A stretch of DNA of 64,000 nucleotides. Origin: Candidatus Heimdallarchaeota archaeon. GTDB lineage: Archaea; Asgardarchaeota; Heimdallarchaeia; JABLTI01. The stretch spans positions 64,001 to 128,000 of the forward strand of contig JABCTZ010000019.1 in the NCBI GenBank assembly GCA_018238155.1, read 5' to 3'. A program made the position numbers and the translations under genes. The stretch's first letter is position 1. Every line of letters begins with the position of its first letter. Positions 29,446-60,580 of this stretch are shown here, piece after piece. Under the pieces are notes generated by a model, which saw only the letters and a program-made list of their open reading frames with translations, was not told the DNA's origin and ran no database searches.

Positions 29446-32400
29446 CTAATAATCATAAATTTCTGCTTCAGATGGTAAATCCGTTTTCTCAACAATTTTC
29501 ATTACTTCATCTAATGATACCGTAACAATTTGTGAAATTCGGTCTTCACCTGCAGTTACACCAAATATCTTTTCTGCTGCAGCAATCATTGGTGCTCTTA
29601 AACTAATAACTATTATTTGTGTTGCTTTGCTCATTTCACGAATTAGCGCGGCAACTTTGTGGACATTATTGAGATCTAAGAAGGCATCAATTTCATCCAG
29701 GACATAGAATGGGGCCGGTTTATATCTTTGTATGGCGAATATCATCGCTAGTGCTGTGAGCGATTTCTCACCACCTGAAAGAGATAACATACTGACGATT
29801 TTCTTTCCTCCTGGATTAGCAGAAATGAGAACTCCTCCATTGAACGGATCATCAGGGTCTTCTAATTCTACCTTTGCTCTGCCATCTGGTGAAAGAATAC
29901 CAAAGACTCTATTGAAATCTTTAGAAATATTGTTGAAAATAGCCATGAATTTATCCCGTTTTTCGCTTTCAATGTCGTTTATTGCTTTGCTAATAGCATC
30001 AAAATCTCTTTCAACGAATTTTCTTTTGTCTACTAATTCATTATTTAATTCAAGTTCTTCTTCATATTGGGAAACTGCTTTCATATTTATCTCTGGGAGG
30101 GCATCAAGTTCTGCTTTTAGTCCAGTAATCACTTCTCTTAGAACAGAGATATCAATTTCTTCATCCTCTGCAAAAATATATGGTAAATCTCTTTCTGCGG
30201 CAATTTCTTCTAATTCAATTATTTGTCCTTCGTTATTCGATTTTTCATTAACAAACCTTTCAACCATAATAATTATTTGATTTTGTTCTTGTCTTTCTTC
30301 TTCCAGGCTTATTCTCATATTTGCTTGTTCTTCTTCTAACCTTTCTTGTTCATTTTGACTTTCTTCAATTAGAGAGATCAATTTATCTCGTTTCTCTTTC
30401 TTTTGAGAAATCACGGCAGCAATTTCATCAACAGTTTTTTGTAGGAGTGTAACTTCATTCACTAATTCTGGTTCATCTTTCTCAATACTTTCGATTCTAT
30501 TTTGAATTTCTTCGAATGTTTTTCTATTCGTTTCTAAACTAGCAGAAGTCTTGAATTGTTGCATTTTCAAGTCATTAATTATATCTCCAATTTCAACTTG
30601 CTGGCTTTCTTTAATCTTTATTTCAGTGAGAACATCCTGAATACCACTTGTATCAAGTTCTTCTTTAAGCTTCATTTCTGACTCTGATAATTTTTCAAGA
30701 GTAATAGCAATATCTTTTCTAGAATTCAATAAATCGTCAATTTTTACTTCTAAATCTTCAGACTCTTTTGAGAGTTGTTCTAATTCTTTTTGTATTCGAA
30801 TGTTTTCCTGACTTCTTATTTCAATCTCTTCTTGGATTATATTTATATCTCGTTCTCTCAAATCTCCATTTCTTATTACATCACTTAGTTGCGGTTGAAG
30901 ATCTTCATTCAATTCCTTTGCTATATCTGTTCGATATTCTAATAATCTATGACGTTCTTCTTGTAGTATTTCATATTCTTCTTCCATATCTGGAAGTTTT
31001 CCTTCTTCTTCAATTATTAACGAGATTTTTGATGCTGCCCTCGCCTTATAAAAACCACCTGTTATAGCTCCTGACGGATTGACTACATCACCATCTAAAG
31101 TTATAGCTTTATAAGAGAAACCTATTTTTCGTGCTGTATCGAGATTTTTAACAATAACTGCTTGCCCAAAAACAAATTCGGCTGCCTTTCGATATTTCTC
31201 CTCAAATTCTACCAAATCTATAGCTTTACCGATTACTCCTTTTTCTTTTATATCTGTGGTAATAATATATGGTCTCAATTTATTGAGAGGTAAAAAGGTT
31301 ACACGACCAGCTTTTGCTTTTTTAACCATCATTACACATTGTGCTGCTACTTCATCTGTTTCAACTACAATATGATTAGTACGATTGCCGGCAGTAATAT
31401 TCAATGCAATAGAATATTTTGGATGTGTTTTACAAATTTCCCCAATAGTACCGTAGATTCCTTGTATTTTCCCTGATTCTCTTGCTTCCAAAACAAGTTT
31501 TATTCCCCTATCTCTACTTGTTATCTCTGCCATAATTTTCTTTGTAGTTTCTAATTCTGTTTGAATTTGTTTAATATTGATAGCTTTATCTCGCAAGTTA
31601 TGTTCATTTTCAATTAGTTCTTGTTCAACTGTATCCAACTCTGTCTTTAATTCACTCACTTTGACATTTAGTTTTCTTGCGAGTTCATTATAATCACTAA
31701 TTTCAGTAGTATACTTTGCTTTTCGACTTAGAAAAGTAGCAAGAATACCTGCAACTTCCACCACTCTCTTCTCTCGTTCACTTAGTTTAGATTTAGTAAT
31801 GTTAATATTGTTGTTAAAAATCGCCAATTGAGATTCAATATCTGCTCTTCGCTTATTCATCTCCGCAGTGGTTGAGCGTATTTCTTCTAATTGATTCATT
31901 ACTTCACTGGTTTTTGATGTTTCAAGCATCTGTCTTTTTAGATCAAGTTCCTCTTTGATCTTCGTGAGTGTGCTATCAGTACCGTCTAATTGTTCTTTAG
32001 TTGAAAGATTATCACTTGCAAGATCTGAATTCTCTAATTGTATAGTATTCAATTCTTCTTTTGCAGAAATTTTATTTTCTTTTAGTTGTTCTAATTCACG
32101 TTCTTTCTGAGCTTTATTTGATACGTTAATAGACTGGTTTTTAGTTAACTCCTCAATTTCACTTGTAAGAGTATTGAAAGACTGTGTTGTAGCATCTTTT
32201 ACTTTTGCTTTTGCTTCTTTGAGTTTTTTATCGTATGATACAATTGCTACAGTCAGCTGATCAATAGTTTCCTCAGAACTCTTCTTTTTCTCTTTCAAGT
32301 CATCTATTTTTGAGACAATTTCAACAATTCTGTCTTTAAGTTGTCTTATTCGAGCATGAATAAGTTTTGCTTCGGTATTCTTAATACGAATGGTTAATTC

Positions 32401-33063
32401 TTGGTATCTTATTGCATCTTCTTTTTCTTTTTCTAGTCTTGCAAGATTCTTCATTGATTCTTCTAATCTTACTGTAGCAATTCGTAATTTCGTTCGTGCA
32501 TCATCAAGGTTTTTCTGAGCCTTTTCCTTTTTTTCATCATAAGAGGCTATCCCAGCAATTTCTTCAAAAAGTCCTCTGACTTGCAAAGGAGACATGTTTG
32601 CAAAATTAGCTATTTCACCTTGTCGAATAACATTGTAACCGTCAATTGAGATGCCGCACATTGCAATAGTATCAATAATTTCACCTCGAGTGATTTTTGA
32701 ACCATTTAGATAATATTCGCTTCTTCCATCAAGATGCACTTTTCTACTGATATGAACTTCATCCGTTGCTATCGGAATTTGTTTTGGTTCTGCAGCGTTG
32801 TCTAGAACTAGAGTGACTCTTGAATTTGAAGCCGTTTTTTGCCCTTCTTTTGTTCCCGAAAAAATTACTCCTGATAACTTATCACTACGAATTGTTTTAG
32901 AACTAAGTTGACCAATTACAAATTGTATTGCATCTGAAATATTGGATTTCCCACAACCATTTGGTCCACTAATAACCGTTAAGCCTTTGGTTAAGTGAAG
33001 TACAACTTTACGACGACCATAACTCTTGAAATTTTCGAGAATTAATCTTTTAATATGAACCAG
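29446..33063 (-). CDS. smc: Chromosome segregation protein SMC (1205 aa, CTG start)
   Basis: Frame extends upstream of the ORF call and includes LENFKSY and Walker A GPNGCGKS; hinge GRVTFLPL, signature LSGGEKS, Walker B LDEID. Confidence 0.96.
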   Translation of the reverse strand: MVHIKRLILENFKSYGRRKVVLHLTKGLTVISGPNGCGKSNISDAIQFVIGQLSSKTIRSDKLSGVIFSGTKEGQKTASNSRVTLVLDNAAEPKQIPIATDEVHISRKVHLDGRSEYYLNGSKITRGEIIDTIAMCGISIDGYNVIRQGEIANFANMSPLQVRGLFEEIAGIASYDEKKEKAQKNLDDARTKLRIATVRLEESMKNLARLEKEKEDAIRYQELTIRIKNTEAKLIHARIRQLKDRIVEIVSKIDDLKEKKKSSEETIDQLTVAIVSYDKKLKEAKAKVKDATTQSFNTLTSEIEELTKNQSINVSNKAQKERELEQLKENKISAKEELNTIQLENSDLASDNLSTKEQLDGTDSTLTKIKEELDLKRQMLETSKTSEVMNQLEEIRSTTAEMNKRRADIESQLAIFNNNINITKSKLSEREKRVVEVAGILATFLSRKAKYTTEISDYNELARKLNVKVSELKTELDTVEQELIENEHNLRDKAINIKQIQTELETTKKIMAEITSRDRGIKLVLEARESGKIQGIYGTIGEICKTHPKYSIALNITAGNRTNHIVVETDEVAAQCVMMVKKAKAGRVTFLPLNKLRPYIITTDIKEKGVIGKAIDLVEFEEKYRKAAEFVFGQAVIVKNLDTARKIGFSYKAITLDGDVVNPSGAITGGFYKARAASKISLIIEEEGKLPDMEEEYEILQEERHRLLEYRTDIAKELNEDLQPQLSDVIRNGDLRERDINIIQEEIEIRSQENIRIQKELEQLSKESEDLEVKIDDLLNSRKDIAITLEKLSESEMKLKEELDTSGIQDVLTEIKIKESQQVEIGDIINDLKMQQFKTSASLETNRKTFEEIQNRIESIEKDEPELVNEVTLLQKTVDEIAAVISQKKEKRDKLISLIEESQNEQERLEEEQANMRISLEEERQEQNQIIIMVERFVNEKSNNEGQIIELEEIAAERDLPYIFAEDEEIDISVLREVITGLKAELDALPEINMKAVSQYEEELELNNELVDKRKFVERDFDAISKAINDIESEKRDKFMAIFNNISKDFNRVFGILSPDGRAKVELEDPDDPFNGGVLISANPGGKKIVSMLSLSGGEKSLTALAMIFAIQRYKPAPFYVLDEIDAFLDLNNVHKVAALIREMSKATQIIVISLRAPMIAAAEKIFGVTAGEDRISQIVTVSLDEVMKIVEKTDLPSEAEIYDY

Positions 33064-33344: not shown

Positions 33345-33707
33345 CTAAATGAGTTTCTCAATTTGAGTAGCAAAAGTTCGTAGATTCTTTTTAATGATTC
33401 CTACTTGGGAACGCGCATCTTCCCCGTAAAATCCCACTAAAATGGCTTTCTTGGAAACAATAATGGTAATATATCCTTCCTCAATTTCACCATCGATGAT
33501 TTTTACTTTCTTCTTATCAAGGGATTCACTAAGTTTTTTCATCGCTCGAACGACAACTGAAGCACTTGAGAGTATAAAGTCATGTTTTAACTCTACAAGA
33601 GTATCTGCCCAAAGCTTTGTTCCATCTAATTTTCCGATTAGGAGACCTTCTAATTCGGGTATTTTATCACGAAATTCTGTTGCTGCATTAACTAATTTTT
33701 CTGACAT
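33345..33707 (-). CDS. Roadblock/LC7-domain protein
   Basis: PELEGLLIGKLDGTKL..A pattern, helix, three strands, C-terminal G....helix. Confidence 0.7.
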   Translation of the reverse strand: MSEKLVNAATEFRDKIPELEGLLIGKLDGTKLWADTLVELKHDFILSSASVVVRAMKKLSESLDKKKVKIIDGEIEEGYITIIVSKKAILVGFYGEDARSQVGIIKKNLRTFATQIEKLI

Positions 33708-48191: not shown

Positions 48192-48545
48192 CTAAAGTTT
48201 GACTTTTTGCAAACTCTCTAAACGAAGAGTCTGTTGACAGACAGGGCATTTTCCCTTTACTCTAAGCCAATCTGAAATATGTTTTTGATGAAACATTGAT
48301 TCACACATAGGGCATTGTGTTGCATTTTGATTTCCTTTCAAGGAAAGCTTACAAATCATACAAACCGCTGGTTTTTTCTCTTCAAGAGTCCACCGACCAA
48401 TATTATTTAAAGTGAAATTCAATGCTTTGCCTGTTATTTTCTTACCATTGGTTACAGTATTAGAATCTGCTTTTGAAGTAACAAAATCAATATGTTCTCC
48501 AAGCATTTTTTCTGAATTTCCACTAATCGTGTTCATATGTCTCAC
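48192..48545 (-). CDS. RING-finger protein (E3-ligase-like)
   Basis: CMIC-x12-CPMC-x3-FHQKH-x3-W-x6-CPVC. Confidence 0.85.
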   Translation of the reverse strand: MRHMNTISGNSEKMLGEHIDFVTSKADSNTVTNGKKITGKALNFTLNNIGRWTLEEKKPAVCMICKLSLKGNQNATQCPMCESMFHQKHISDWLRVKGKCPVCQQTLRLESLQKVKL

Positions 48546-49220: not shown

Positions 49221-52200
49221 TTAGAATTCTATTGAGTCAATTTCACTTAGAAATTCCTTTAAGATATTTTCAGACACTCCATCTACTTCTATTTTTTTCA
49301 TTTTCTCCTCTTGGAGAGCTAATTCTTCGAGTTTTTTACGCTCTTGTACTGCTTCAGAATTTGAATCTACACTTTCACTTTTCACGTTTTCTTCTACTAG
49401 TGATAGAACCCAATTATCAAGTAAATCTTCATCTAATCCTTGTAAAAGATTTTTTAAAGTAGATTTTACTTCTGCAGGGGTATCTTTTGTAGGATCTTTT
49501 GAGTAAACAAGTGGGGCAATGTATTTACCTCGACGTCGTTTAGCACCTGGCACAGGTAAAATTGGTTCTTCTCTATGCTTCTTTGCTATTGCTGCTTTTC
49601 TGTGCCAAGTACCATCTTTTTTATTAAATTCGACTTGTTTTGTTGAACCTGATGCTTTTACCATCTCGAAAATATGTGCAACTTTATTTTTTGAGAGCAT
49701 CAAATAAATGATCAATTTCATACGCTCATTAGAAGAGAGTTTATCCAATGATCCCTCATTTACCTTTGCTTTTAGAACAGCTTTTTCTTCGGAAAGTAGT
49801 TTAGATTCATCAATGGAAATATCAAGTAAATCAATCATTTCTGCTGTTAATTCTTTTTTAGGAGCAAATTCTTTCTGAATCTTCTGAAAATTTCGTTGCA
49901 TTTCAAGTGGTAATTTTTCAATGATTTGATTAGATGTTCCCGCTTTTCCGAGTAACACTGCTATTGTTTTATAACAGTCTATTGTCCAGCTTTCTAATGC
50001 TCTCATAGCTCGTCCACGTAATTGTTGCCACGCTGTAACATCTCGAGTTGCGGTAGCATCAATAAGAATATCTGGTGTTCGCACATCCCATCCAGTTCTA
50101 GCCCATGCGGAAACAAATATTAATTGAATTGGTAGCTCTTCTGAATCCAAAAAATCAGATACTAGGTCGTAAATTAATTGTTTTTGCCTTCCAGAAGGCA
50201 TTTTCAAATAATAATAATCTACTAAATCACCAGTTGCAGTTTGTAAGACACCTTTATTTGCAAATTCAATTTTTCGTGCAATAATTCCATAATCGTAAAG
50301 TTTGAGAACAATATTGTCAATACGAATAGAGGGGTTTGCAATACGATCCTTTAACAGCTTTATAGAAAGATTTAGTGCGTCATCCATAACAGTCATTTCA
50401 TCAATGAAATCCCCTAAAGGTTCAAACACCTTATTTGCAAACTCCGAAAATCTGGCTCGATATACTTTTCTTAATGATTTGGCATAGGTGCTCATCAATT
50501 CTTTGAATGTTAAATACATGAAATTACTTAATTGTTCTTGGAACGGCAGTTCAAAAATCAATTCCATGAAAATTCGTTCAGTTAATTTATCAACTATAAC
50601 TTCATTTCGTACGAACTCAGCCATCATTATGTGTAACGGTTTTTCAAGTTCCGGATTAAAACTAATATACATTTCAGAAGATTGTACAGCAATTGGATTA
50701 TACTTTAATATATTGGTACTCAAACTTTGAGCAAAGCTACCTCCAACACCAGAAAACCCTGGAGAACCTATACCCGTATCATCTTCAACCTTGATAGTTC
50801 GTCCTGTATCAAATATAACTACTCCTTTCACATCTCTGATTTCTTCTTCTGCATTGATAATTGATTGGAATGTTCCCACACGTCCCTCGCCTATTTTTGT
50901 TCTAGCCCAGGTGTCTAATGTTTTGTATATTCCGACCATAGTTGAACACATAATCTTTCTAACTTTCTTTGATGTTTCCTTTCTATCTTTACTTTCTTTG
51001 CGAATATCGTAGAATGTTTTTCGTTTAGGCATTCGTTTCCCATATTTTTCACTTTTTATCATTTTTTGAAGGCTGGGGATACGAATTAATTGTTCAAGTC
51101 GCATTACTAATTGTTCTGTCTCTTCAACGATTTCTCGTGCCGCATTGGCGTGTTGAGAATTATAAGCTAATGAAATATCTGACCAGCTATTGTAGATTTG
51201 TACAGTCTGTACTAGATTCGTATCAATAAGTGATAGAGGTCTTTTTTCTCTATTTGGTGACCAGTCAAGGAATTTAGATTTTAATTTTTCATTAACCATA
51301 TCTCTTCGATAACTTTGATACATACCAAGTAATTCTTTACAAATGAATAAACGGTCATTCATGGGAATCTTTTGGAATTCCCTTCGAAGGTTATTATCTC
51401 CAAAATAATTCCATAATTGCTTCATATTCATTTTAAGCTCGTTATGCAATTCTCTGATAGCCTTTTCTCGTCCTGAATAAGCAAAAGTGACTCCTAATTC
51501 TGCTATAGGTGCAACAAATCCATGCATAACTAATTCTTTTTCTGGGACAATGTAAATGAGTTTCAATTTTAACTTCTTGAAATCTTTTTCATAAGCTTTA
51601 GCTGTACCAGAAAAACCAATGAGGTTCTCTATATGAGCTCCTTTAAAGATCTTAACTAATCGTTTAGCAACTTCGTTAGTTGCACTTCCTTCTTGTTCAA
51701 CGATTTTGTGGGCTTCATCGAAAATAACATGCCTAATACCTAACCAATTAATTAATTGTCTAAGTTCTTTTTCTTTCTTAGTTTTTGCTCCTAATACTTG
51801 AGCGAGAGAAGTATAAGTAAGAATTATTATTGGTGGAATTTCTCTTGTCTTTTGAATGAAATTTTCAAGCTGGGTAATCGTTCCAGAAAATACAAAACTT
51901 GGTGAAATCTGTAATCCAATTTCATTGAAGCAAATTGAATCTACCCATTGGGATTGATAATTTTGTGTTGGAACCAGTACTAAGATTGATTCATTGAAAC
52001 GTAACTTGCGGGTCCAATCTTGGATACACATCATTCCCATTAGTGTTTTACCTGAACCTGTTGGGGAGTCAATAATATTGCCATTATACTTTTCTCCTTT
52101 AAACATATAATAGGCTTCTAATTGGTATGGTCGAGGAATTGGAGAATTAATTATGTCTTGATGTGGAATTTTGAGAATATCTATTTTTGGTTTTTTCACC

Positions 52201-53450
52201 TTTGTTGTTTTTGCTACTTTTTCCTTTCTTTCAACAACATCTCCTGTTGTAGTTTCCTCGCTTTTATTTTGTAATTCCTTCACCTTTAAGCGTTTAGCGA
52301 TGAGGGATTTTTGTTCATTAAGATTAACTTCCTTTGGTCTTGCTTCTTCCCTTCCAATTCTTTCACGAAGAATACCGATAGAAATAGTCGTCATATCAAG
52401 CTCAAAATGCAAATCATCAAGTAAGATTTTTTGAAGTTCATCAAGTTTACCATAAACATCCTCAATTCGATAAAACCCATTTTCCTGCAATCCCTTGTAT
52501 ATTTCAGGTGGGAATAAAGCAGAAAGCTCTTCCCGACCAATATCTTCTCGACGATACATCTTCACATCGGGAGCAAAAGTATACTCGAATATTATATCTG
52601 GTATTGCTGCAGTTATTTCTGCTGGAATATAAGGAAGTGGAGGTGGAGCTAAATCAATCACCCTTTCTATTTTTTTGATGAATTCTTCTTCAACAAGAGT
52701 TTCAAGATAGAATTGGATAGATTCTGCCTTTAGTAATTCTAAAACGAATTTTTCCTCACCTTGTTGAACTTCCCTCAGAATTTCTTTGATGCTCAATGGA
52801 ATACTGCTTTTCTCAAGTATTTCAACAAGAACATCTTTTACGTATTCTTTTCGCATTTCCATATCAATTGTTTGTGGTTTTGGGATAACTTTTGAATTCA
52901 TTCGATGCATTTCGATTAAAACATCGTACAACATTCGAATATTTAGTAACATTACTCTTCCACGGAGCATATCATTTTGAGCGAGTGCATCACGATATGC
53001 CTCCACAGAACGCATATACATTTTGTTTGTTCGCCAAAAATATTTTAACTGCTGCTCTTCAGCATTTTCTTTTAAAACTCTGCTAAATTTCTCTTGTACA
53101 GTTGTACAATAACCTGTTGCATTCCAGAAATCATCTGCCCCTAGTACTTTGAAAATATCTTCCTCAGAAGTAACTTGATTAAGCATATCATCTACACTTT
53201 TGGTAGCTTCTTTGGTCTTCTTAAGTTCAATTACCTGTCTCTCGAGATCTTTTTCTTCATCGAAGAGTGGTTGGTCTTCCTCTACAACTGCAAAAATATC
53301 TGGGCTATATTCTTCCATATAGACGTTTTCATCTGTGACTTTATCATCTTCTGTTGTAATAATATCTTCAATTGGCGTATCAGGTTCAATCTCTTCTTTT
53401 TTGAAGACCCTTTTTATCCATCCGAAAAATCTCTTAAACATGTTTTGCAC
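49221..53450 (-). CDS. Large SF2 DEAH helicase (ResIII/XPB-like) with long N-terminal extension
   Basis: RPYQ, SPTGSGKT, LVPT, DEAH, GFSGT, TGWD, QLRGRAMR. Confidence 0.9.
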   Translation of the reverse strand: MQNMFKRFFGWIKRVFKKEEIEPDTPIEDIITTEDDKVTDENVYMEEYSPDIFAVVEEDQPLFDEEKDLERQVIELKKTKEATKSVDDMLNQVTSEEDIFKVLGADDFWNATGYCTTVQEKFSRVLKENAEEQQLKYFWRTNKMYMRSVEAYRDALAQNDMLRGRVMLLNIRMLYDVLIEMHRMNSKVIPKPQTIDMEMRKEYVKDVLVEILEKSSIPLSIKEILREVQQGEEKFVLELLKAESIQFYLETLVEEEFIKKIERVIDLAPPPLPYIPAEITAAIPDIIFEYTFAPDVKMYRREDIGREELSALFPPEIYKGLQENGFYRIEDVYGKLDELQKILLDDLHFELDMTTISIGILRERIGREEARPKEVNLNEQKSLIAKRLKVKELQNKSEETTTGDVVERKEKVAKTTKVKKPKIDILKIPHQDIINSPIPRPYQLEAYYMFKGEKYNGNIIDSPTGSGKTLMGMMCIQDWTRKLRFNESILVLVPTQNYQSQWVDSICFNEIGLQISPSFVFSGTITQLENFIQKTREIPPIIILTYTSLAQVLGAKTKKEKELRQLINWLGIRHVIFDEAHKIVEQEGSATNEVAKRLVKIFKGAHIENLIGFSGTAKAYEKDFKKLKLKLIYIVPEKELVMHGFVAPIAELGVTFAYSGREKAIRELHNELKMNMKQLWNYFGDNNLRREFQKIPMNDRLFICKELLGMYQSYRRDMVNEKLKSKFLDWSPNREKRPLSLIDTNLVQTVQIYNSWSDISLAYNSQHANAAREIVEETEQLVMRLEQLIRIPSLQKMIKSEKYGKRMPKRKTFYDIRKESKDRKETSKKVRKIMCSTMVGIYKTLDTWARTKIGEGRVGTFQSIINAEEEIRDVKGVVIFDTGRTIKVEDDTGIGSPGFSGVGGSFAQSLSTNILKYNPIAVQSSEMYISFNPELEKPLHIMMAEFVRNEVIVDKLTERIFMELIFELPFQEQLSNFMYLTFKELMSTYAKSLRKVYRARFSEFANKVFEPLGDFIDEMTVMDDALNLSIKLLKDRIANPSIRIDNIVLKLYDYGIIARKIEFANKGVLQTATGDLVDYYYLKMPSGRQKQLIYDLVSDFLDSEELPIQLIFVSAWARTGWDVRTPDILIDATATRDVTAWQQLRGRAMRALESWTIDCYKTIAVLLGKAGTSNQIIEKLPLEMQRNFQKIQKEFAPKKELTAEMIDLLDISIDESKLLSEEKAVLKAKVNEGSLDKLSSNERMKLIIYLMLSKNKVAHIFEMVKASGSTKQVEFNKKDGTWHRKAAIAKKHREEPILPVPGAKRRRGKYIAPLVYSKDPTKDTPAEVKSTLKNLLQGLDEDLLDNWVLSLVEENVKSESVDSNSEAVQERKKLEELALQEEKMKKIEVDGVSENILKEFLSEIDSIEF

Positions 53451-53597: not shown

Positions 53598-54335
53598 CTA
53601 TTGGATATGAAATTGTTTTTTGATTACTTCTTTTACTATCGATTCCAATGATTTCATTAGTGGATTAAAGGAGCTTGGTCTATATTTTCGTTTAAAATGC
53701 CCGTTGGTATCTAAAAGGATGTCTCGAGGAGTGTTCCGCAAAATCTGCTGTAAGTCACTTTTTGCTTGTTGGCAAGAACCATTAAAGATATGATCTTTCA
53801 AATTTGGGAACAAATCACTAACTCCTGCACTCTCAAAGAGTTGCTGTATGTGTCGTTGGGATATTTTTCTGCCCCAAGGTAAATCTTGTTTATTAACGAA
53901 AACGGTAAATGGTATTTTCTTATTAATGATATCCTCACCCTTCAATTCTTTTAATTCTCTAAGTGACCAAATGTTTTCTTCCCAATTATCTAAATCAGCA
54001 TCTATGACTATTACTAATCCATGAATGCCTTGTAAAACAACTTTTCTAGTTTCTCGTAATCTTCTTTGTCCTGCAGTTGTAAAAACATGGATTTTGAAAA
54101 GATATTCATCAGTTTCTGGTTTCGCACCAAATCCAAAAACTGCCTGATCAAAGAATACAGTTCTACCGGTTTGCTGGTCTGCAACAGTAACAAAATCGAA
54201 TACTCCTTTGGGATTCTCTAAAGATTTCATAACCTTAACAGCTGTTATTGTAAATGTTTTTCCAGACATTGTCGGACCCCAATAACAGATTTTTAAGGAT
54301 CTTATTGTTCGATATTTATGTATTAGCACAATCAA
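53598..54335 (-). CDS. MglA-type small GTPase
   Basis: KICYWGPTMSGKT, GRTVFFD, TTAGQ, NKQDLP. Confidence 0.88.
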   Translation of the reverse strand: MIVLIHKYRTIRSLKICYWGPTMSGKTFTITAVKVMKSLENPKGVFDFVTVADQQTGRTVFFDQAVFGFGAKPETDEYLFKIHVFTTAGQRRLRETRKVVLQGIHGLVIVIDADLDNWEENIWSLRELKELKGEDIINKKIPFTVFVNKQDLPWGRKISQRHIQQLFESAGVSDLFPNLKDHIFNGSCQQAKSDLQQILRNTPRDILLDTNGHFKRKYRPSSFNPLMKSLESIVKEVIKKQFHIQ

Positions 54336-54426
54336 ACCTCAAGTTAGTTTTTTTTCGCTATTTGTATTAATTAAAGATACTTTTTGCATACAAAAAATGT
54401 TTTGATTTGACATTTTCCATTTGTTA

Positions 54427-55545
54427 TTATTCTATAGGAATTATTGCTTCCCCACACTTGGAGCATTTATCTGCCCAAGGAATTCTTGCATTGCATTGTG
54501 AACATATCCGTAAGATTTCAGTAGATTTGCTGGTTGGAGTAAGGATGGGTTCTGGAATAGGATATATCATAAGTGGTTGTGGGTCAGGTATCTTATCAAT
54601 TTCAATTTCTTTCTCATCAATAGTACCTTTAATTCTGTCAATATATGGATTAACTAAATCTAATCTTTTGTTAGCGGCTTCTAATAATTCGGTATTATTT
54701 TCAGAAAGTTTTGCTGCGTTTTCAAAATAACTTCTAGCTTTCAGTAAATACATATAGGCTTTATCTGATTCACTTCGATTTGAAAGTCCGACTGCAATAT
54801 AGAAACAAGACATTCCCAATTCAGTAGAAGCCAGTATTTTCACTCGATTGTCAGATTCTTCTGGAAGGTCAAAATTCATCATAGCAAATTTATAAGAAGC
54901 TGCACCCGCGAAAAGCTTCGATGCTTTGTCAAAATCACCTTGTTTACGAGCTAAAAATGCTTCTGATTTTGTAATTTCTGCTTCAATTTCCAGTTTCCTT
55001 AACAAAAGCATTTGGTAGAACGGTTTTGCATAATGATTTTCTTGATCTGGTGATAATTTTTCAATAAATTCTATAGCGCTTAGTAGTGCTGCTAATGATG
55101 AGATATGATAATATCTATACTGTAAACTAGTTTGAACATTTGATATGGCTCTTGATTGATAGACTGCAGATACAAGATAAAGTAGAATGGCTATTTCATA
55201 ATTCTCTTCTACAACTCTACCAAGATATCCATCATCTAAAGAAATCCAGCGAGTTTTTAGGCCTATAGCTTCAAATTTTGTTTTTCCAAAGCTATTAGCA
55301 AATATATTTGAGATTGTTTGCAATGCTTTTATTTGACTTGATGAATTTTTAGATGGAAAAATTTGTTCTACATATTCTGGAAGGGTTGCTTTTAATTCAG
55401 AAATAATTTTCACTGTCTTTTGATTTGCACTCGTTTCATCAATAGTTTCAATGAGTTTCAGAAAACCTATCAAGAAATCTTTCTCTTCTTCAAGATATAT
55501 GGAAATCAATTTTGGGTCAAAGGGAATTTTATAAAGGGCTTTCAT
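54427..55545 (-). CDS. Alpha-helical (TPR-like) protein with C-terminal Zn ribbon
   Basis: Ala-rich helical repeats, Pro-rich linker, CSQC-x8-CSKC. Confidence 0.72.
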   Translation of the reverse strand: MKALYKIPFDPKLISIYLEEEKDFLIGFLKLIETIDETSANQKTVKIISELKATLPEYVEQIFPSKNSSSQIKALQTISNIFANSFGKTKFEAIGLKTRWISLDDGYLGRVVEENYEIAILLYLVSAVYQSRAISNVQTSLQYRYYHISSLAALLSAIEFIEKLSPDQENHYAKPFYQMLLLRKLEIEAEITKSEAFLARKQGDFDKASKLFAGAASYKFAMMNFDLPEESDNRVKILASTELGMSCFYIAVGLSNRSESDKAYMYLLKARSYFENAAKLSENNTELLEAANKRLDLVNPYIDRIKGTIDEKEIEIDKIPDPQPLMIYPIPEPILTPTSKSTEILRICSQCNARIPWADKCSKCGEAIIPIE

Positions 55546-55568: not shown

Positions 55569-56258
55569 TTATTCAACTATGATGATTGCCCCAATTGCAT
55601 CATCTAAGGATGGCCTATCAGGCATCATTTCTTTCTTGGTTTTTTCATTTGTTTCTACTTTCTTTAATTGAGGAGGACCACCGCGAGCTGGTCTATCTAC
55701 GCTAGGAGCTGGTCTTGATCTTGTTGTTGCAGCAGTTGTAGTACCTGAGGTTGGATGTGTTGCTGGTTGGCCATCCCTCAAGTCTGTCATGACTTTGGTC
55801 ATTACTTCAGCAAATTGACCAAAAACAGCTTGTAATGATTCTGAATCTTTCGATTCTTCTGAACTACCTGTATTTAAGCCATAAATTCCACGTTCGATTC
55901 TCATTTTCAATCTAATAGAATCGCGAACCCATTCAGCTCTTCCTCTGGTGGCAACATTTTCATTAATATATTCAATAATGTCCATGTGTTTAGCTGGACT
56001 AAGAGTAACAACAATATTCATTGTTTCAGAACTAATTGTTTCTGTTTTGTCACCTTTCAATGAAATGCTACGTTTTATAGTTGAGATTAGAGTTCTTCTT
56101 TTGCCTTTATTCAAATCTCGACTAACTTCTTTTGATTCTTCTTTCCACTTCTGTGGAATTGTCTTCTTCGACTTTTTACTTGAAGTACTCTTCTTCTTCT
56201 TTTTTTTATCTTTGGAAGTTTTGGATGTTGGTTTTTTAGAGCTCATTGAATCCATCAT
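55569..56258 (-). CDS. ParR-like ribbon-helix-helix protein with Lys-rich N-terminus and disordered tail
   Basis: NIVVTLS...DIIEYIN.....RAEWVRDSIR (strand-helix-helix); overlaps the 3' end of the actin-like gene. Confidence 0.65.
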   Translation of the reverse strand: MMDSMSSKKPTSKTSKDKKKKKKSTSSKKSKKTIPQKWKEESKEVSRDLNKGKRRTLISTIKRSISLKGDKTETISSETMNIVVTLSPAKHMDIIEYINENVATRGRAEWVRDSIRLKMRIERGIYGLNTGSSEESKDSESLQAVFGQFAEVMTKVMTDLRDGQPATHPTSGTTTAATTRSRPAPSVDRPARGGPPQLKKVETNEKTKKEMMPDRPSLDDAIGAIIIVE

Positions 56259-57309
56259 CTCCTAATCTATTCACAAAAGTTCTTGCGAACATTTCAAATC
56301 CCATAGCATTAGACATTACGGGATCCTCTGGCATTGCAAGCATTTCTGGGTGATCAGCTAAACCTGCTTGTTCAAATCCTGCTCTTAATCGGTCACCAAA
56401 AATATGCATACCTCCTCCACAAAGGATGACTTTTTCTATAATTGCATCAGGTGGCAAAGTGCCTATTAATCGGTTTACTTCATCCAAAATGACATCTGAA
56501 ATAATTTCTATATGATATTCTTTCATACTTGCAATATCCCATTTTTCTCCTTGAATTGTAAGAATGTCTTTTTGCTGAGAAAGAGATGTCATAAGATCAA
56601 AAGGGCGAATTATTTTACCCGTTTGATTTTGCAATTCTTGGGCAATTCTATGTGTTAGAGTGTCGGTTGCTTCTTCTAAGCTCCCCGAAGCTTGACGCAT
56701 AATTCTTCCTTCGTACAAGGTTAAGATGTCTGTTGAACCATGTCCAACATCGATAACAATAGCATCTACCGCTCGCGCCTCCCCTTCAGTTTTAAGGGTG
56801 TGATAATACGTTCCAAAAGGCTCTGGCATTACTATGCAATTTTTTATTGTTAATTTCCGGTGAAATTTTTCACCAGTAGCTTCATTTTCAATTTTAAGAT
56901 CTAAATCTCCTTTCAACCCTTTAGCAAGTTTAGTCATTTCCTTTTTAGAAGAAGCTACAGGTACACCTGTTGCCATAATAATTTGATCGTGATCTTTTTT
57001 AGTAATTAAAGCAAGAACCGCTTTTATTGCTAAGATAGCATCTTCAATACTTTTTACTTTCCCTTCGCTAGCTATTGCTCGTTTTATTTCGCTCTGTAAT
57101 CTTGCAAGTTCACCAACATAAAGACTCTTTTCTCCATCAGAAATAACTAAATTTTTCTCTAAAGATTTATCGCCACTAAATCCACTCCAACCTTGTAATG
57201 GAGTGCCAACTATAGAAGGAATCTTCTTTAGGTTATCGGCACAAGAGAGTTTTATTGTTGATGTTCCTAAATCGATACCAATTGCTCGATATGTGGGTCT
57301 TAAAGACAT
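56236..57309 (-). CDS. ParM/StbA-family actin-like ATPase
   Basis: Phosphate-1 GIDLGTSTIK, TGVPV, connect-1 MPEPFG, phosphate-2 IDVGHGSTD, adenosine LCGGG, connect-2 DPVMSNAMGF. Confidence 0.92.
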   Translation of the reverse strand: MSLRPTYRAIGIDLGTSTIKLSCADNLKKIPSIVGTPLQGWSGFSGDKSLEKNLVISDGEKSLYVGELARLQSEIKRAIASEGKVKSIEDAILAIKAVLALITKKDHDQIIMATGVPVASSKKEMTKLAKGLKGDLDLKIENEATGEKFHRKLTIKNCIVMPEPFGTYYHTLKTEGEARAVDAIVIDVGHGSTDILTLYEGRIMRQASGSLEEATDTLTHRIAQELQNQTGKIIRPFDLMTSLSQQKDILTIQGEKWDIASMKEYHIEIISDVILDEVNRLIGTLPPDAIIEKVILCGGGMHIFGDRLRAGFEQAGLADHPEMLAMPEDPVMSNAMGFEMFARTFVNRLGDDGFNEL

Positions 57310-57911: not shown

Positions 57912-58583
57912 TTATTCTCTAATTTTTGGTTTTACTGATTTCACCCAATTAATCCATTCATCCATTGACTCATTTCTTTTTAGTGCAACTGAGAAAGTGA
58001 GAATTTCCGGTTGGATTTCTTTTGCATGGTTGAAGAGAATTTTCTCTGTGAAATCTGGAAAATATTCCAATAGATCTGCTTTAGTAATTACTACAACATC
58101 AGCTTCCTTGTAAATAACTGGATATTTCTTTGGTTTATGTGGTCCTTCGGGTACACTAGCAATAATTACTCGATAATCTTCTCCAAGATCATGTGAGGAT
58201 GGGCAAACTAAATTTCCAACATTTTCTATAAATAATATATCAATACTAGATAGATCCATTTTTTTCAAAGCATTTCTGATTAATGGTGCATCTAAGTGAC
58301 ACATTCCACCAGTATTAATTTGAAGAACATCTACTCCAAGAGCCATAATTCTTTCAGCATCAATAGTTGTTGCTAGATCTCCTTCAATAACAGCTATTTT
58401 CTTTTCCCCTTGTAATCTTATAATGGTATTTTCAATGAGAGTTGTTTTTCCACCACCAGGTGATCCCATAATATTAATACAAATGAGGTTATTTGCTCTA
58501 AGTAGAGCTCTATTTTCGTCAGCGATTTGTTCATTTATTTTTGCTACTCTCTCTAATACAGGAATTTTTTTTGTTTTGTTCAA
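57912..58583 (-). CDS. hypB: Hydrogenase nickel-insertion GTPase HypB
   Basis: GSPGGGKT, IEGDL.T..DA, NTGGMCHLDA, ENVGNLVCP, ITKAD. Confidence 0.96.
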   Translation of the reverse strand: MNKTKKIPVLERVAKINEQIADENRALLRANNLICINIMGSPGGGKTTLIENTIIRLQGEKKIAVIEGDLATTIDAERIMALGVDVLQINTGGMCHLDAPLIRNALKKMDLSSIDILFIENVGNLVCPSSHDLGEDYRVIIASVPEGPHKPKKYPVIYKEADVVVITKADLLEYFPDFTEKILFNHAKEIQPEILTFSVALKRNESMDEWINWVKSVKPKIRE

Positions 58584-58868
58584 TTTCAGTATCTCAAATT
58601 CATTAAAGAAACGATGAGCTAATTTAATCTAATGTAATTTCTTATTATTAATACTACAGAAATAACCTTTCTTTAATAAAAATTGGTGTGATTTGAGAAG
58701 TGCAGATAATGACATTCAGTTGTGTACATATGAAATTTGATGAAATCTGGAGTTAACTTTTAAAGTTGGGTGTACATTAACTAATTGTAACATTCAAAAT
58801 AGATATCAAGTATGTGAGAGGAATCTCTCTATAGTAAAGATTTGCTAGTGTTATCGGGGAAGCTCTTC

Positions 58869-59501
58869 ATGGAATCCGTTAATAAAACCGACTTTAAACC
58901 TAGGATAGAAGAAAATTATCTAAAAATAGTTTTAGTGGGTGATTCTAATGTTGGCAAAACTACTCTTCTTAATGCATTAGTCGGTTCCGGAGAAACAGGG
59001 CGGGGGTATTCAGTCTCGCTTGAGATACCTATTGAAATAAAGAAAGGAGATAAGAAAGAACTTGTTGTTGGAAGGATTTATGATTTAAGATCTCAACGAT
59101 ACTTTCCTTTTCTACACTCTCTGTATTATAATAATGCAAAGGGAGCAATTATTGTTTTTGATATTACAGATAAGAATTCATTCAAATCATTAACAAAATG
59201 GCGCGATATTATTTGGGGGCATGTTGGGAATATTCCTCTACTTGTTTGTGGAAATAAAACCGATCTAAAAAATTCAAACGAAGAACAGGTTTTCCAACAA
59301 GAAGTACTAGCATTAATAAAATCATTTTCTAAAAATCGAGCAATGAAAACAACCTATATTGAACTGTCTGCTGAAAAAAGGATAATTGCATATACAGCTG
59401 AAAAAATGAAGAAATCACAATTGAAAGATATTTATCCAACAATCGATGCATTTAGAGACCCATTTGTACATTGGATTAAGGGACTTGCAAAGAAAACATG
59501 A
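58869..59501 (+). CDS. Rab/Ras-like small GTPase with degenerate G3
   Basis: KIVLVGDSNVGKT, IYDLRSQ, YY..A.GAIIVFDIT...SF, GNKTD, ELSA. Confidence 0.88.
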   Translation: MESVNKTDFKPRIEENYLKIVLVGDSNVGKTTLLNALVGSGETGRGYSVSLEIPIEIKKGDKKELVVGRIYDLRSQRYFPFLHSLYYNNAKGAIIVFDITDKNSFKSLTKWRDIIWGHVGNIPLLVCGNKTDLKNSNEEQVFQQEVLALIKSFSKNRAMKTTYIELSAEKRIIAYTAEKMKKSQLKDIYPTIDAFRDPFVHWIKGLAKKT

Positions 59502-59590: not shown

Positions 59591-60580
59591 ATGATTCAAT
59601 CGGTAATAGTGAATGATGAAGCGTATCAACAAATGTTCAAATATGTCATTGAATTTGCTAATCCTGAAAGACCATATAGACAATGGAGGGAAGTGATTGG
59701 CTGGCTTGTTGGTAAGGTAGAAGGTGAGACTGTAACAGTAATCAAAGCTATTCCGATGACTAGTGGAAATTCTATTTTCGTTGAAATGTCTGATTATACC
59801 ATTATTCCAAAGATTGCAGAGGAAGCAGAAAGTATCAATGCTGTTATTGTCGGTTGGTTCCACAGCCATCCCTCATTTGGTTTTTTCTTATCTGGAGTTG
59901 ATATCAGAACACAACGTTATCAGCAAAGTCTATTTGATAATGCAATCGCCTTAGTCTGCGATCCAACAAAAATAACTTCGATAGAATCAGGAATTCACGG
60001 GTATCAAGTATATATGGATGAAGAACATAGAGGAAGAGAATATCGGGAATTAGATATTCTAATAGAAACTGAAGCTATGTACCCTGACCTTCTTTCTAAA
60101 TTCTTGGAAGAACAAGGAATTACACGATCCTTCTCAGATGCTATCTCACATGAAGAACTTTCAGCATTATATGCTCTCGAAGGAATTACACCACCACAAT
60201 TGGCTGCATTAAAAGCGAAACAATTATTGCCTTCCGAACAAAGTGCTAGACCAGTATTAGAAGGGGAGTATATTGTTAGTGATTTAATCAAAGCAAAAGA
60301 AGATTGTTATATTCAAATACGAATATCAAATACTGGCAAGGGTGTTGCTTGGTCAGTTGATCTTAATTTTAATCCAGGATTAGATTTTAAATTGTTTTCA
60401 ATGTATCCTCATCGAATAATTGATCAATTGAATTACGAAACTACTATCATTGAAACTTTCAAATTAAAACCTGTGAGAAAAGGGGAATTGCTTCTTCCTA
60501 GAACAATAATCAATTATAAATTAGCAAATGAGAAGCGGTACTATATTGTTGTACCTGCGCTCACAATCCTTGCAATATAG
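59591..60580 (+). CDS. JAMM/MPN+ metalloprotease fused to a C-terminal Ig-like domain
   Basis: EVIGWLVG, GWFHSHPSFGFFLSGVDIRTQ; C-terminal ISNTG..A..V.L. Confidence 0.9.
   Translation: MIQSVIVNDEAYQQMFKYVIEFANPERPYRQWREVIGWLVGKVEGETVTVIKAIPMTSGNSIFVEMSDYTIIPKIAEEAESINAVIVGWFHSHPSFGFFLSGVDIRTQRYQQSLFDNAIALVCDPTKITSIESGIHGYQVYMDEEHRGREYRELDILIETEAMYPDLLSKFLEEQGITRSFSDAISHEELSALYALEGITPPQLAALKAKQLLPSEQSARPVLEGEYIVSDLIKAKEDCYIQIRISNTGKGVAWSVDLNFNPGLDFKLFSMYPHRIIDQLNYETTIIETFKLKPVRKGELLLPRTIINYKLANEKRYYIVVPALTILAI

Follow-up and report, generated by a model that had tools for sequence, protein, structure and literature searches.

In Myxococcus, the small GTPase MglA binds the actin homologue MreB only in its GTP form, and MglA-GTP also binds the linker adjoining the zinc (Zn) ribbon of GltJ, a contact that links it to the MreB platform (PMC11135422). 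Group 1 of the MglA family is defined by an Arg adjoining the G2 Thr, by TVPGQ, and by an insertion between G1 and G2 (Wuichet and Sogaard-Andersen 2014, PMC4316618). Fifty-nine orphan MglA homologues are on record; the orphans SofG and Bdellovibrio MglA function without a coupled MglB, and SofG retains the Arg finger and receives no stimulation from MglB (PMC4316618). MglA-type GTPases (the MglA1 and MglA2-5 groups) have already been reported in Asgard genomes (bioRxiv 10.1101/2024.02.28.582541; PMC10933270), and the MglA passages of these surveys describe no enlarged (long-form) clade, no orphan status beside an MglA-Roadblock pair, and no linkage to actin or gelsolin genes. Here we analyze a 64,000-nucleotide (nt) stretch from a Candidatus Heimdallarchaeota archaeon (contig JABCTZ010000019.1, positions 64,001 to 128,000; hereafter the window) and, within it, a minus-strand open reading frame (ORF) at 53598..54335. 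An initial annotation, made from the DNA letters, had described this ORF as an MglA-type GTPase next to an actin module and without an adjacent MglB.

The ORF exists and its translation comprises 245 residues (P0001; residue numbering starts at the TTG at 54335). When PDB sequences were searched with phmmer, the top four distinct sequences were M. xanthus and T. thermophilus MglA (E 7e-15 to 9e-14), and the next family was Arl13B (E 2e-6). In the alignment, GRTVFFD pairs with TDRTLFFD, so that R58 falls on the MglA Arg finger, and TTAGQ pairs with TVPGQ. The G3 motif keeps the Thr and the Gly-Gln, and Val-Pro of MglA becomes Thr-Ala; the T27-T59 spacing of 32 residues aligns to MglA with gaps at just three places, all in the MglA sequence and together four residues long. 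An AlphaFold2 (AF2) model based on a 33-sequence alignment had a mean predicted local distance difference test score (pLDDT) of 88.7 and a predicted template modeling score (pTM) of 0.86. It showed an extra strand (residues 45-52) ahead of the strand at residues 59-71, corresponding to the MglA-type G1-G2 insertion. The top 12 Foldseek matches to this model were all MglA chains (E 3e-14 to 6e-11), with Rab and Arl structures ranking below. Similarly, 11 MglA entries obtained Z scores of 19.8-24.7 in VIA-align and everything else stayed at or below 18.5, including EF-Tu (<=18.5), Arf/Rab (~17.5), and two solved Asgard ArfR structures (17.4-18.0). The best VIA-align matches were GTP-analogue forms of MglA in complex with MglB (root mean square deviation [rmsd] 1.5-2.0 over 174-185 residues), headed by MglA-GTPgammaS with a Z of 24.7 (rmsd 2.0 over 185 residues). 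The MglA hallmarks listed in the initial annotation were therefore borne out, MglA being the best match in both sequence and fold. Judged by sequence and predicted structure, P0001 belongs to the Group 1 type of MglA GTPases: it combines the G1-G4 motifs, the Arg-Thr pair, the Thr in G3, and the G1-G2 insertion, and its closest structures are MglA. An adjoining MglB/Roadblock gene, which is usual but not obligatory in Group 1, is absent. From these motifs, we infer that P0001 is an active GTPase switch.

P0001 shares with the M. xanthus and T. thermophilus proteins the extra G1-G2 segment, Arg-Thr, Thr-x-x-Gly-Gln, and NKxD, but it is about 50 residues longer. Residues 7-243 of the model map onto MglA residues 6-193 in VIA-align, which places the additional residues in insertions between G4 and the last helix, not in a tail. 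These insertions were modeled at pLDDT >90 and include the nearly invariant R219-P220. Identity to MglA is 18-24% in structural alignments and 34-37% in the local G-domain alignments of phmmer. P0001 further differs from MglA in its G3 sequence (TTAGQ versus TVPGQ), in its archaeal host, in the lack of an adjoining gene for a roadblock GTPase-activating protein (GAP), and in its neighbors, which are a ParM-type actin and a Bro1-fold protein, not mglB. Its likeness to SofG and Bdellovibrio MglA lies at the family level, as those proteins are bacterial and carry other extensions. SofG works with a bactofilin scaffold, which is a cytoskeletal polymer.

Public records name the relatives of P0001 "ADP-ribosylation factor-like," "signal recognition particle receptor subunit beta," or hypothetical; the named ones come from Candidatus Heimdallarchaeota metagenome-assembled genomes. 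In Pfam, P0001 had Arf and Ras matches above the cut-off, but these were modest and partial, the Arf match spanning only profile positions 58-147 of 174; in NCBIfam, a weak small_GTP domain match stayed below threshold. We rejected an Arf, Arf-like, or signal recognition particle receptor beta identity, since G3 starts with Thr86 and not Asp, Arl13B trailed MglA in the phmmer search (2e-6 versus 7e-15), and the ArfR structures had lower Z scores. The public annotation of these proteins is corrected accordingly.

We then asked how widely the long form occurs, using 83 genomes from the Heimdall class to which the window belongs and a phylum sample of 400 genomes. The window's genome (G000; 4.08 Mb, 46 contigs, 90.7% complete) belongs to a family designated f1 (12 genomes, two genera) and contains two MglA-type genes, that of P0001 and a canonical 187-residue short form on another contig, the two products being 35% identical over the G domain. 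A P0001-type match was found in 82 of the 83 class genomes, most of which carry two long copies (matching to about residue 240) and one short copy. In every long-form homologue, conservation of the extra region continues to about residue 240. Long-form matches in the phylum sample came from the window's class and from families f28, f29, f32, and f33, and none was found in the largest family of that sample (0/135 genomes). Among 1.84 billion representative proteins, only ~20 matched over the full length, other strong matches spanning residues 13-155 only. In a maximum likelihood (ML) tree, the long forms made up a clade with support of 100/98. The short MglA forms that these genomes also encode fell outside it, and among the short forms, the Heimdall MglA grouped with bacterial representatives. 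This phylogeny robustly supports the long form as a distinct subfamily, and in the explanation that we favor, it separated by duplication from the canonical MglA-MglB pair. The f1 GTPases sit on the longest stem in the long-form clade (1.36), and the actin encoded near P0001 is also on a long branch in its own tree (stem 0.7), which is consistent with joint change.

The genomic context of the two forms differs with respect to Roadblock genes. A canonical short MglA with an adjoining Robl_LC7 gene was present in all five genomes checked outside f1 (G017, G035, G057, G069, and G074, from three families), at 61-290 nt and on both sides in two of them, whereas the long forms of these genomes lay 6 to ~100 kb from any Robl_LC7 gene. 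In the window's genome, eight matches to Robl_LC7 exceed the Pfam cut-off, none of them inside the window, and the nearest bona fide gene (G000:C17:128954-129214) lies just beyond the window end, 10.6 kb from the GTPase. The absence of an adjacent MglB was thus confirmed over 10 kb around P0001, and it appears to be a trait of the whole long-form clade. The "only roadblock gene" that the initial annotation had placed about 20 kb away, at 33345..33707, did not hold up: a Pfam Roadblock search with this ORF was empty even at E<=1, and the real Robl_LC7 gene is nearer. For this ORF, language-model features (0.92 to LAMTOR3/Robl clusters) and a weak BLAST match of the C-terminal part to a genuine Roadblock protein (E 0.015) make a Roadblock/LAMTOR-like identity only a lead. 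The short MglA of f1 also lacks an adjoining Roadblock gene and has a ~400-residue gene there instead; a 96-residue ORF upstream of the canonical MglA in the window's genome had no Pfam match.

In all 12 f1 genomes, the long-form gene is part of a row with the order G3E-type GTPase, ParM-like actin (P0004), ribbon-helix-helix (RHH) protein (P0003), P0002, long MglA, and superfamily 2 (SF2) helicase (P0005). The row keeps its chromosomal position and flanking genes throughout, with GTPase identity decreasing from 92% down to 65%. P0004 matched the NCBIfam ParM model at 2e-19 with 70 bits, far under the curated 417-bit cut-off. P0003 had no Pfam match. The AF2 model of P0002 (pLDDT 86.9, pTM 0.89) had Bro1 domains (HD-PTP, ALIX, yeast Bro1, BROX) as its top 21 Foldseek PDB matches, with E values of 1e-6 to 2.5e-3 and template modeling scores of about 0.5-0.65; its DPQPLM linker is conserved and the Zn-ribbon cysteines C348, C351, C361, and C364 are invariant. 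P0002 was found in 12 of the 83 class genomes, all of them f1. An actin-fold ATPase gene followed by one for an RHH-type adaptor recalls the ParMRC type II partition systems, and the f1 row differs in being chromosomal and vertically inherited. To our knowledge, classical ParMRC includes no GTPase, Bro1-fold protein, or helicase.

The GTPase gene is co-oriented with the Zn-ribbon gene that encodes P0002, as initially annotated; the gap of 91 nt given there becomes 97 nt with the revised start codon described below. This spacer ranges from 26 to 97 nt in the family and is 26-67 nt in 9 of the 11 relatives. A T6 run near 54392 had been suggested to terminate transcription ahead of the GTPase. 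The run is indeed present on the minus strand, but of the 12 loci, only that of the window and that of the sister genome G008, which has T5, contain the segment carrying it, and the remaining 10 do not; moreover, the 26-nt spacer of two loci leaves no room for a terminator plus a promoter. A terminator at this point was therefore not upheld, and the T6 run is probably at most a leaky, strain-specific signal. Co-transcription of the GTPase with its upstream gene is probably the conserved arrangement. A sigma-70 promoter scan gave 8 promoter-like sites versus 6.1 expected, the bacterial model being uninformative for an archaeon, and a scan for hairpin terminators, likewise uninformative for an archaeon, found none.

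Proximity of a long-form GTPase to an actin gene was also found outside f1. Of the 29 actin-bearing f3 genomes, 26 have a long-form paralogue 135-1514 nt upstream of an actin gene of the same family and in the same orientation. Two complete genomes have spacings of 135-139 nt, and the other linked ones have spacings of ~0.8-1.5 kb; two further f3 genomes have the GTPase and the actin split across contigs. In G017, the neighboring GTPase and actin genes occupy 1289439-1290116 and 1290255-1291295. Small ORFs between the f3 genes seem spurious or unrelated to RHH adaptors. Together with the 12 of 12 f1 genomes, these loci show that the synteny proposed as a check in the initial annotation extends well beyond the window's genome. 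The actin-linked f2/f3 paralogue (L056:9380-10138, L058:9414-10172, L060:9605-10369, and relatives) has Glu for the catalytic Gln (xxPGE) and keeps the Arg beside the G2 Thr. The actin family itself was confined to f1 (three paralogues), f2, and f3; at E<=1e-30, the 39 genomes of f4-f7 had no member. An actin tree, which had no outgroup, cannot say which f1 paralogue is the orthologue of the f3 actin.

The closest homologues of P0001 outside its family, at ~40% identity, come from f6 and f7. There, the long MglA gene follows genes for a gelsolin-domain protein (PF00626, 23.4 bits versus a cut-off of 21) and a 178-residue Ras-family GTPase, and is itself followed by a Sua5/YrdC gene. The gelsolin-Ras-long MglA row was present in 20 of 22 f6 genomes and in one of two f7 genomes (for example, L045:7838-10141, G074:C6:206337-208619). 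Another f3/f5 long-form paralogue is followed by genes for a NERD/Mrr-like protein, a 473- to 590-residue coiled-coil protein, and an NYN-domain protein. The loci of this paralogue include L055:6726-9362, L062:10513-13494, and L061:8570-11274, and the coiled-coil protein showed sub-threshold similarity to the crescentin rod.

The reading of P0001 that we favor, tentatively and as the best of those considered, is a cytoskeleton-linked orphan GTPase switch. P0001 would be a catalytically competent MglA Group 1 nucleotide switch working without a GAP gene of its own alongside, and in f1, it is probably co-transcribed with the ParM-like actin, the ParR-like adaptor, and the Bro1-fold Zn-ribbon protein. 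By analogy with the action of MglA-GTP on MreB, AglZ, and GltJ in Myxococcus, we infer that the GTP form binds an effector encoded in the row, most likely the Bro1-fold protein P0002 or, alternatively, the filament directly; in this way, it would set the place or the timing of filament system activity. The analogy, which does not imply homology, extends to P0002, which like GltJ has a conserved Pro-rich linker followed by a 4-Cys Zn ribbon. GltJ differs in being a membrane protein with a GYF domain, the Zn ribbon of P0002 being C-terminal to a Bro1-fold domain. GTP hydrolysis would be carried out by Arg58 and Gln90 of P0001 itself, and one of the Roadblock proteins encoded elsewhere in the genome, of which there are at least eight, may assist in trans. 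A complex prediction with actin residues 1-345, P0002, GTPase residues 10-245, and GTP scored 0.17 versus a mark of 0.32, a result that speaks neither for nor against binding and is not counted as evidence.

GTPase steering of the actin cytoskeleton is a eukaryotic hallmark, and the origin of such control is an open question. In the archaeal group nearest to eukaryotes, we find an MglA-type switch that appears to have duplicated off an MglA-Roadblock pair, gained insertions, and recurs beside genes for actin or an actin regulator. If the coupling is true, the GTPase, the Bro1-fold adaptor, the RHH adaptor, and the ParM-like actin provide a small, tractable set for GTPase-filament control in an archaeon; if it is false, a well-defined new subfamily of orphan MglA GTPases is still at hand.

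Several observations weigh against a cytoskeletal role. The long-form GTPase is present in 39 genomes of f4-f7 (36 at E<=1e-24), all without the ParM-like actin, and 82 of the 83 class genomes have the GTPase family; the core job of the family must therefore be independent of this actin. The initial annotation had proposed that the GTPase regulates the ParM-like filament, and the recurrent linkage speaks for this, but a regulator dedicated to that filament is excluded by the 39 actin-less genomes. Besides, f1 has one long-form copy only, which presumably still does the core job. In most f3 genomes, an opposite-strand gene intervenes between GTPase and actin, so the two cannot be one operon there; in one f3 genome, they are 7.8 kb apart on opposite strands, and the f2 actin lies on a 7.8-kb contig that has no GTPase gene. 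The neighbors of the long forms in f4, f5, f28, f29, and f33 are metabolic or unrelated. Those in f28, f29, f32, and f33 include an Mrp/NUBPL ATPase, a Drg-type GTPase, a short coiled-coil protein, a Ras-like gene, and unknowns, and no consistent cytoskeletal link was seen in the neighborhoods examined in these four families. Finally, an approximately unbiased (AU) test did not reject a single clade for the f1 GTPase and the actin-linked f2/f3 paralogue (p 0.09), and the backbone inside the long-form clade is unresolved in the ML tree, so that one ancestral linkage and two independent ones are indistinguishable. If the two are orthologous, their distribution matches that of the ParM-like actin; if they are not, the linkage arose twice.

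In a rival reading, the long form is a general housekeeping switch for polarity, membranes, or trafficking, its proximity to actin being inherited synteny without coupling. We consider this quite plausible, although it is not the explanation we prefer. The family is near universal in the class, extends to four more Asgard families, and is present where this actin is absent; its neighbors vary by lineage and are often metabolic; selection is not needed for synteny to persist within one family or across one class; and P0002 and P0005 are f1-only additions. However, inherited synteny fits less easily with the same actin family lying nearby in two families that have different local gene orders, or with the third lineage, which ties the GTPase family to a gelsolin-domain gene. 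The f1 row is moreover a tight same-strand cluster with gaps down to 26 nt, and by our estimate, chance alone would place the genes within 2 kb of each other with a probability of about 0.2-0.3% per genome. A broader form of the cytoskeletal reading seems unlikely as it stands: that the long-form GTPase, freed from its Roadblock GAP and enlarged, switches actin-family cytoskeletons at large, acting on ParM-like filaments via the Bro1-fold adaptor and on gelsolin-regulated actin elsewhere, as a forerunner of eukaryote-like control or a parallel invention.

P0001 might instead serve the SF2 helicase, for instance, in the loading or timing of a DNA translocase, with the actin and adaptor as the segregation part of a DNA-handling machine. 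The helicase gene starts 147 nt after the GTPase in the window and ~150-210 nt after it in the 11 relatives, on the same strand throughout f1 (three f1 loci, G008, G009, and G011, are cut off by the contig end within the helicase gene), and the row includes a DNA-binding-type RHH protein. This gap, however, exceeds the other gaps of the row, the helicase is f1-only, and the proximity of GTPase and actin in f3 occurs without it. We are also unaware of any case in which an MglA-type GTPase acts on a helicase, which weakens the idea further, and we regard it as rather improbable. Hardly credible is a mobile-element partition cassette or defense system with the GTPase as an accessory, since the plasmid-like pairing of ParM-like actin with an RHH partner (type II partition architecture) and the large helicase ending the row must be set against fixed chromosomal position and flanks in 12 of 12 f1 genomes from two genera, blank PADLOC results for six row proteins, no integrase or replicase among the neighbors examined, and flat GC content.

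The features of the locus are collected in Table 1.

Table 1. Features of the P0001 locus and of the distant Roadblock-like ORF, in window coordinates; invariance figures are from the 33-sequence family alignment (A1)
Feature	Position	Strand	Description
Long-form MglA-type GTPase coding sequence (P0001)	53598..54329	-	243 residues from GTG 54329; maximal ORF from TTG 54335, 245 residues
G1 P-loop GPTMSGKT (G20-T27)	54255..54278	-	Read from sequence; G20, G25, K26 invariant
Switch I / G2 GRTVFFD (G57-D63)	54147..54167	-	Candidate Arg finger R58 before T59; T59, D63 invariant
G3 / switch II TTAGQ (T86-Q90)	54066..54080	-	Thr for the usual Asp; catalytic Gln90; G89 invariant
G4 NKQD (N148-D151)	53883..53894	-	Guanine specificity; N148, K149, D151 invariant
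G5-like S187..A191 and ~50 extra long-form residues	53676..53882	-	Includes nearly invariant R219-P220
Intergenic spacer	54330..54426	-	GAGGT ribosome-binding site 54336-54340, A/T-rich TTTAATTAATA stretch, T6 run 54392-54397
P0002, Bro1-fold helical protein	54427..55545	-	Pro-rich DPQPLM linker, C-terminal 4-Cys Zn ribbon; from model and Foldseek
P0003, ParR-like adaptor	55569..56258	-	Ribbon-helix-helix-patterned core and charged tail; sequence reading; in row 12/12
P0004, ParM/Alp-type actin-fold ATPase	56236..57309	-	Pfam ALP_N 5.9e-15, MreB-like_C 8.6e-14
P0005, SF2 helicase, final row gene	49221..53450	-	1409 residues; Pfam DEAD and ResIII
Divergent Roadblock/LAMTOR-like protein at best	33345..33707	-	120-residue ORF; no Pfam match; language-model features; weak BLAST

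The true start of P0001 is most likely the GTG at 54329, because an ATG, GTG, or TTG is found at the equivalent of codon 3 in all 12 orthologous loci with a conserved GAGGT-like Shine-Dalgarno site just 5' to it, and because public gene calls give 243 residues. A start-type triplet at or next to codon 1 is present in only 5 of the 12 loci, namely, those of the window, of G006 and G008, which are its two closest relatives, and of G004 and G005, in which the codon-1 TTG is one base out of frame.

Two further ParM-like actin paralogues are encoded in the window's genome (L065:9141-10235 on C15 and L066:9360-10463 on C3; 56% and 51% identity). Both are without a GTPase, RHH, or Bro1-fold neighbor, and the actin of the row is the most divergent of the three. 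Apart from the f1 genomes, P0005 has one relative in a probably mis-binned contig: a 3.8-kb contig of an f6 genome with 7% contamination (G059:C124:1-3810) carries a helicase 76% identical to it. Upstream of the actin, 57912-58583(-) encodes a CobW/HypB/UreG-type (G3E) NTPase (Pfam 2.7e-21), and a divergently transcribed gene at 58842-59501(+) encodes a 219-residue Ras-family GTPase (Pfam 1.7e-22), so that three GTPases of different kinds lie within 6 kb, all kept in f1. The surroundings also include a RING-finger protein at 48192-48545(-) (zf-RING_2, 2.7e-7) and, at 59591-60580(+), a JAB/MPN protease with a TRAP-beta-like C-terminal part (22.0 bits versus a 22.4-bit cut-off).

The Roadblock-like ORF at 33345-33707 adjoins the gene for an SMC protein at 29446-32739(-). 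Upstream of the short MglA of the window's genome, L002:102-1370 (G000:C6) contains two ORFs (318 and 96 residues) where relatives have one of 336-419 residues, which suggests a frameshift or assembly error. Lastly, L071:5754-6638 (G000:C17:131754-132638) encodes a 294-residue Ras/Arf-like GTPase fused to a C-terminal thioredoxin-like domain and lies 2.5 kb from the bona fide Roadblock gene L071:2832-3245.

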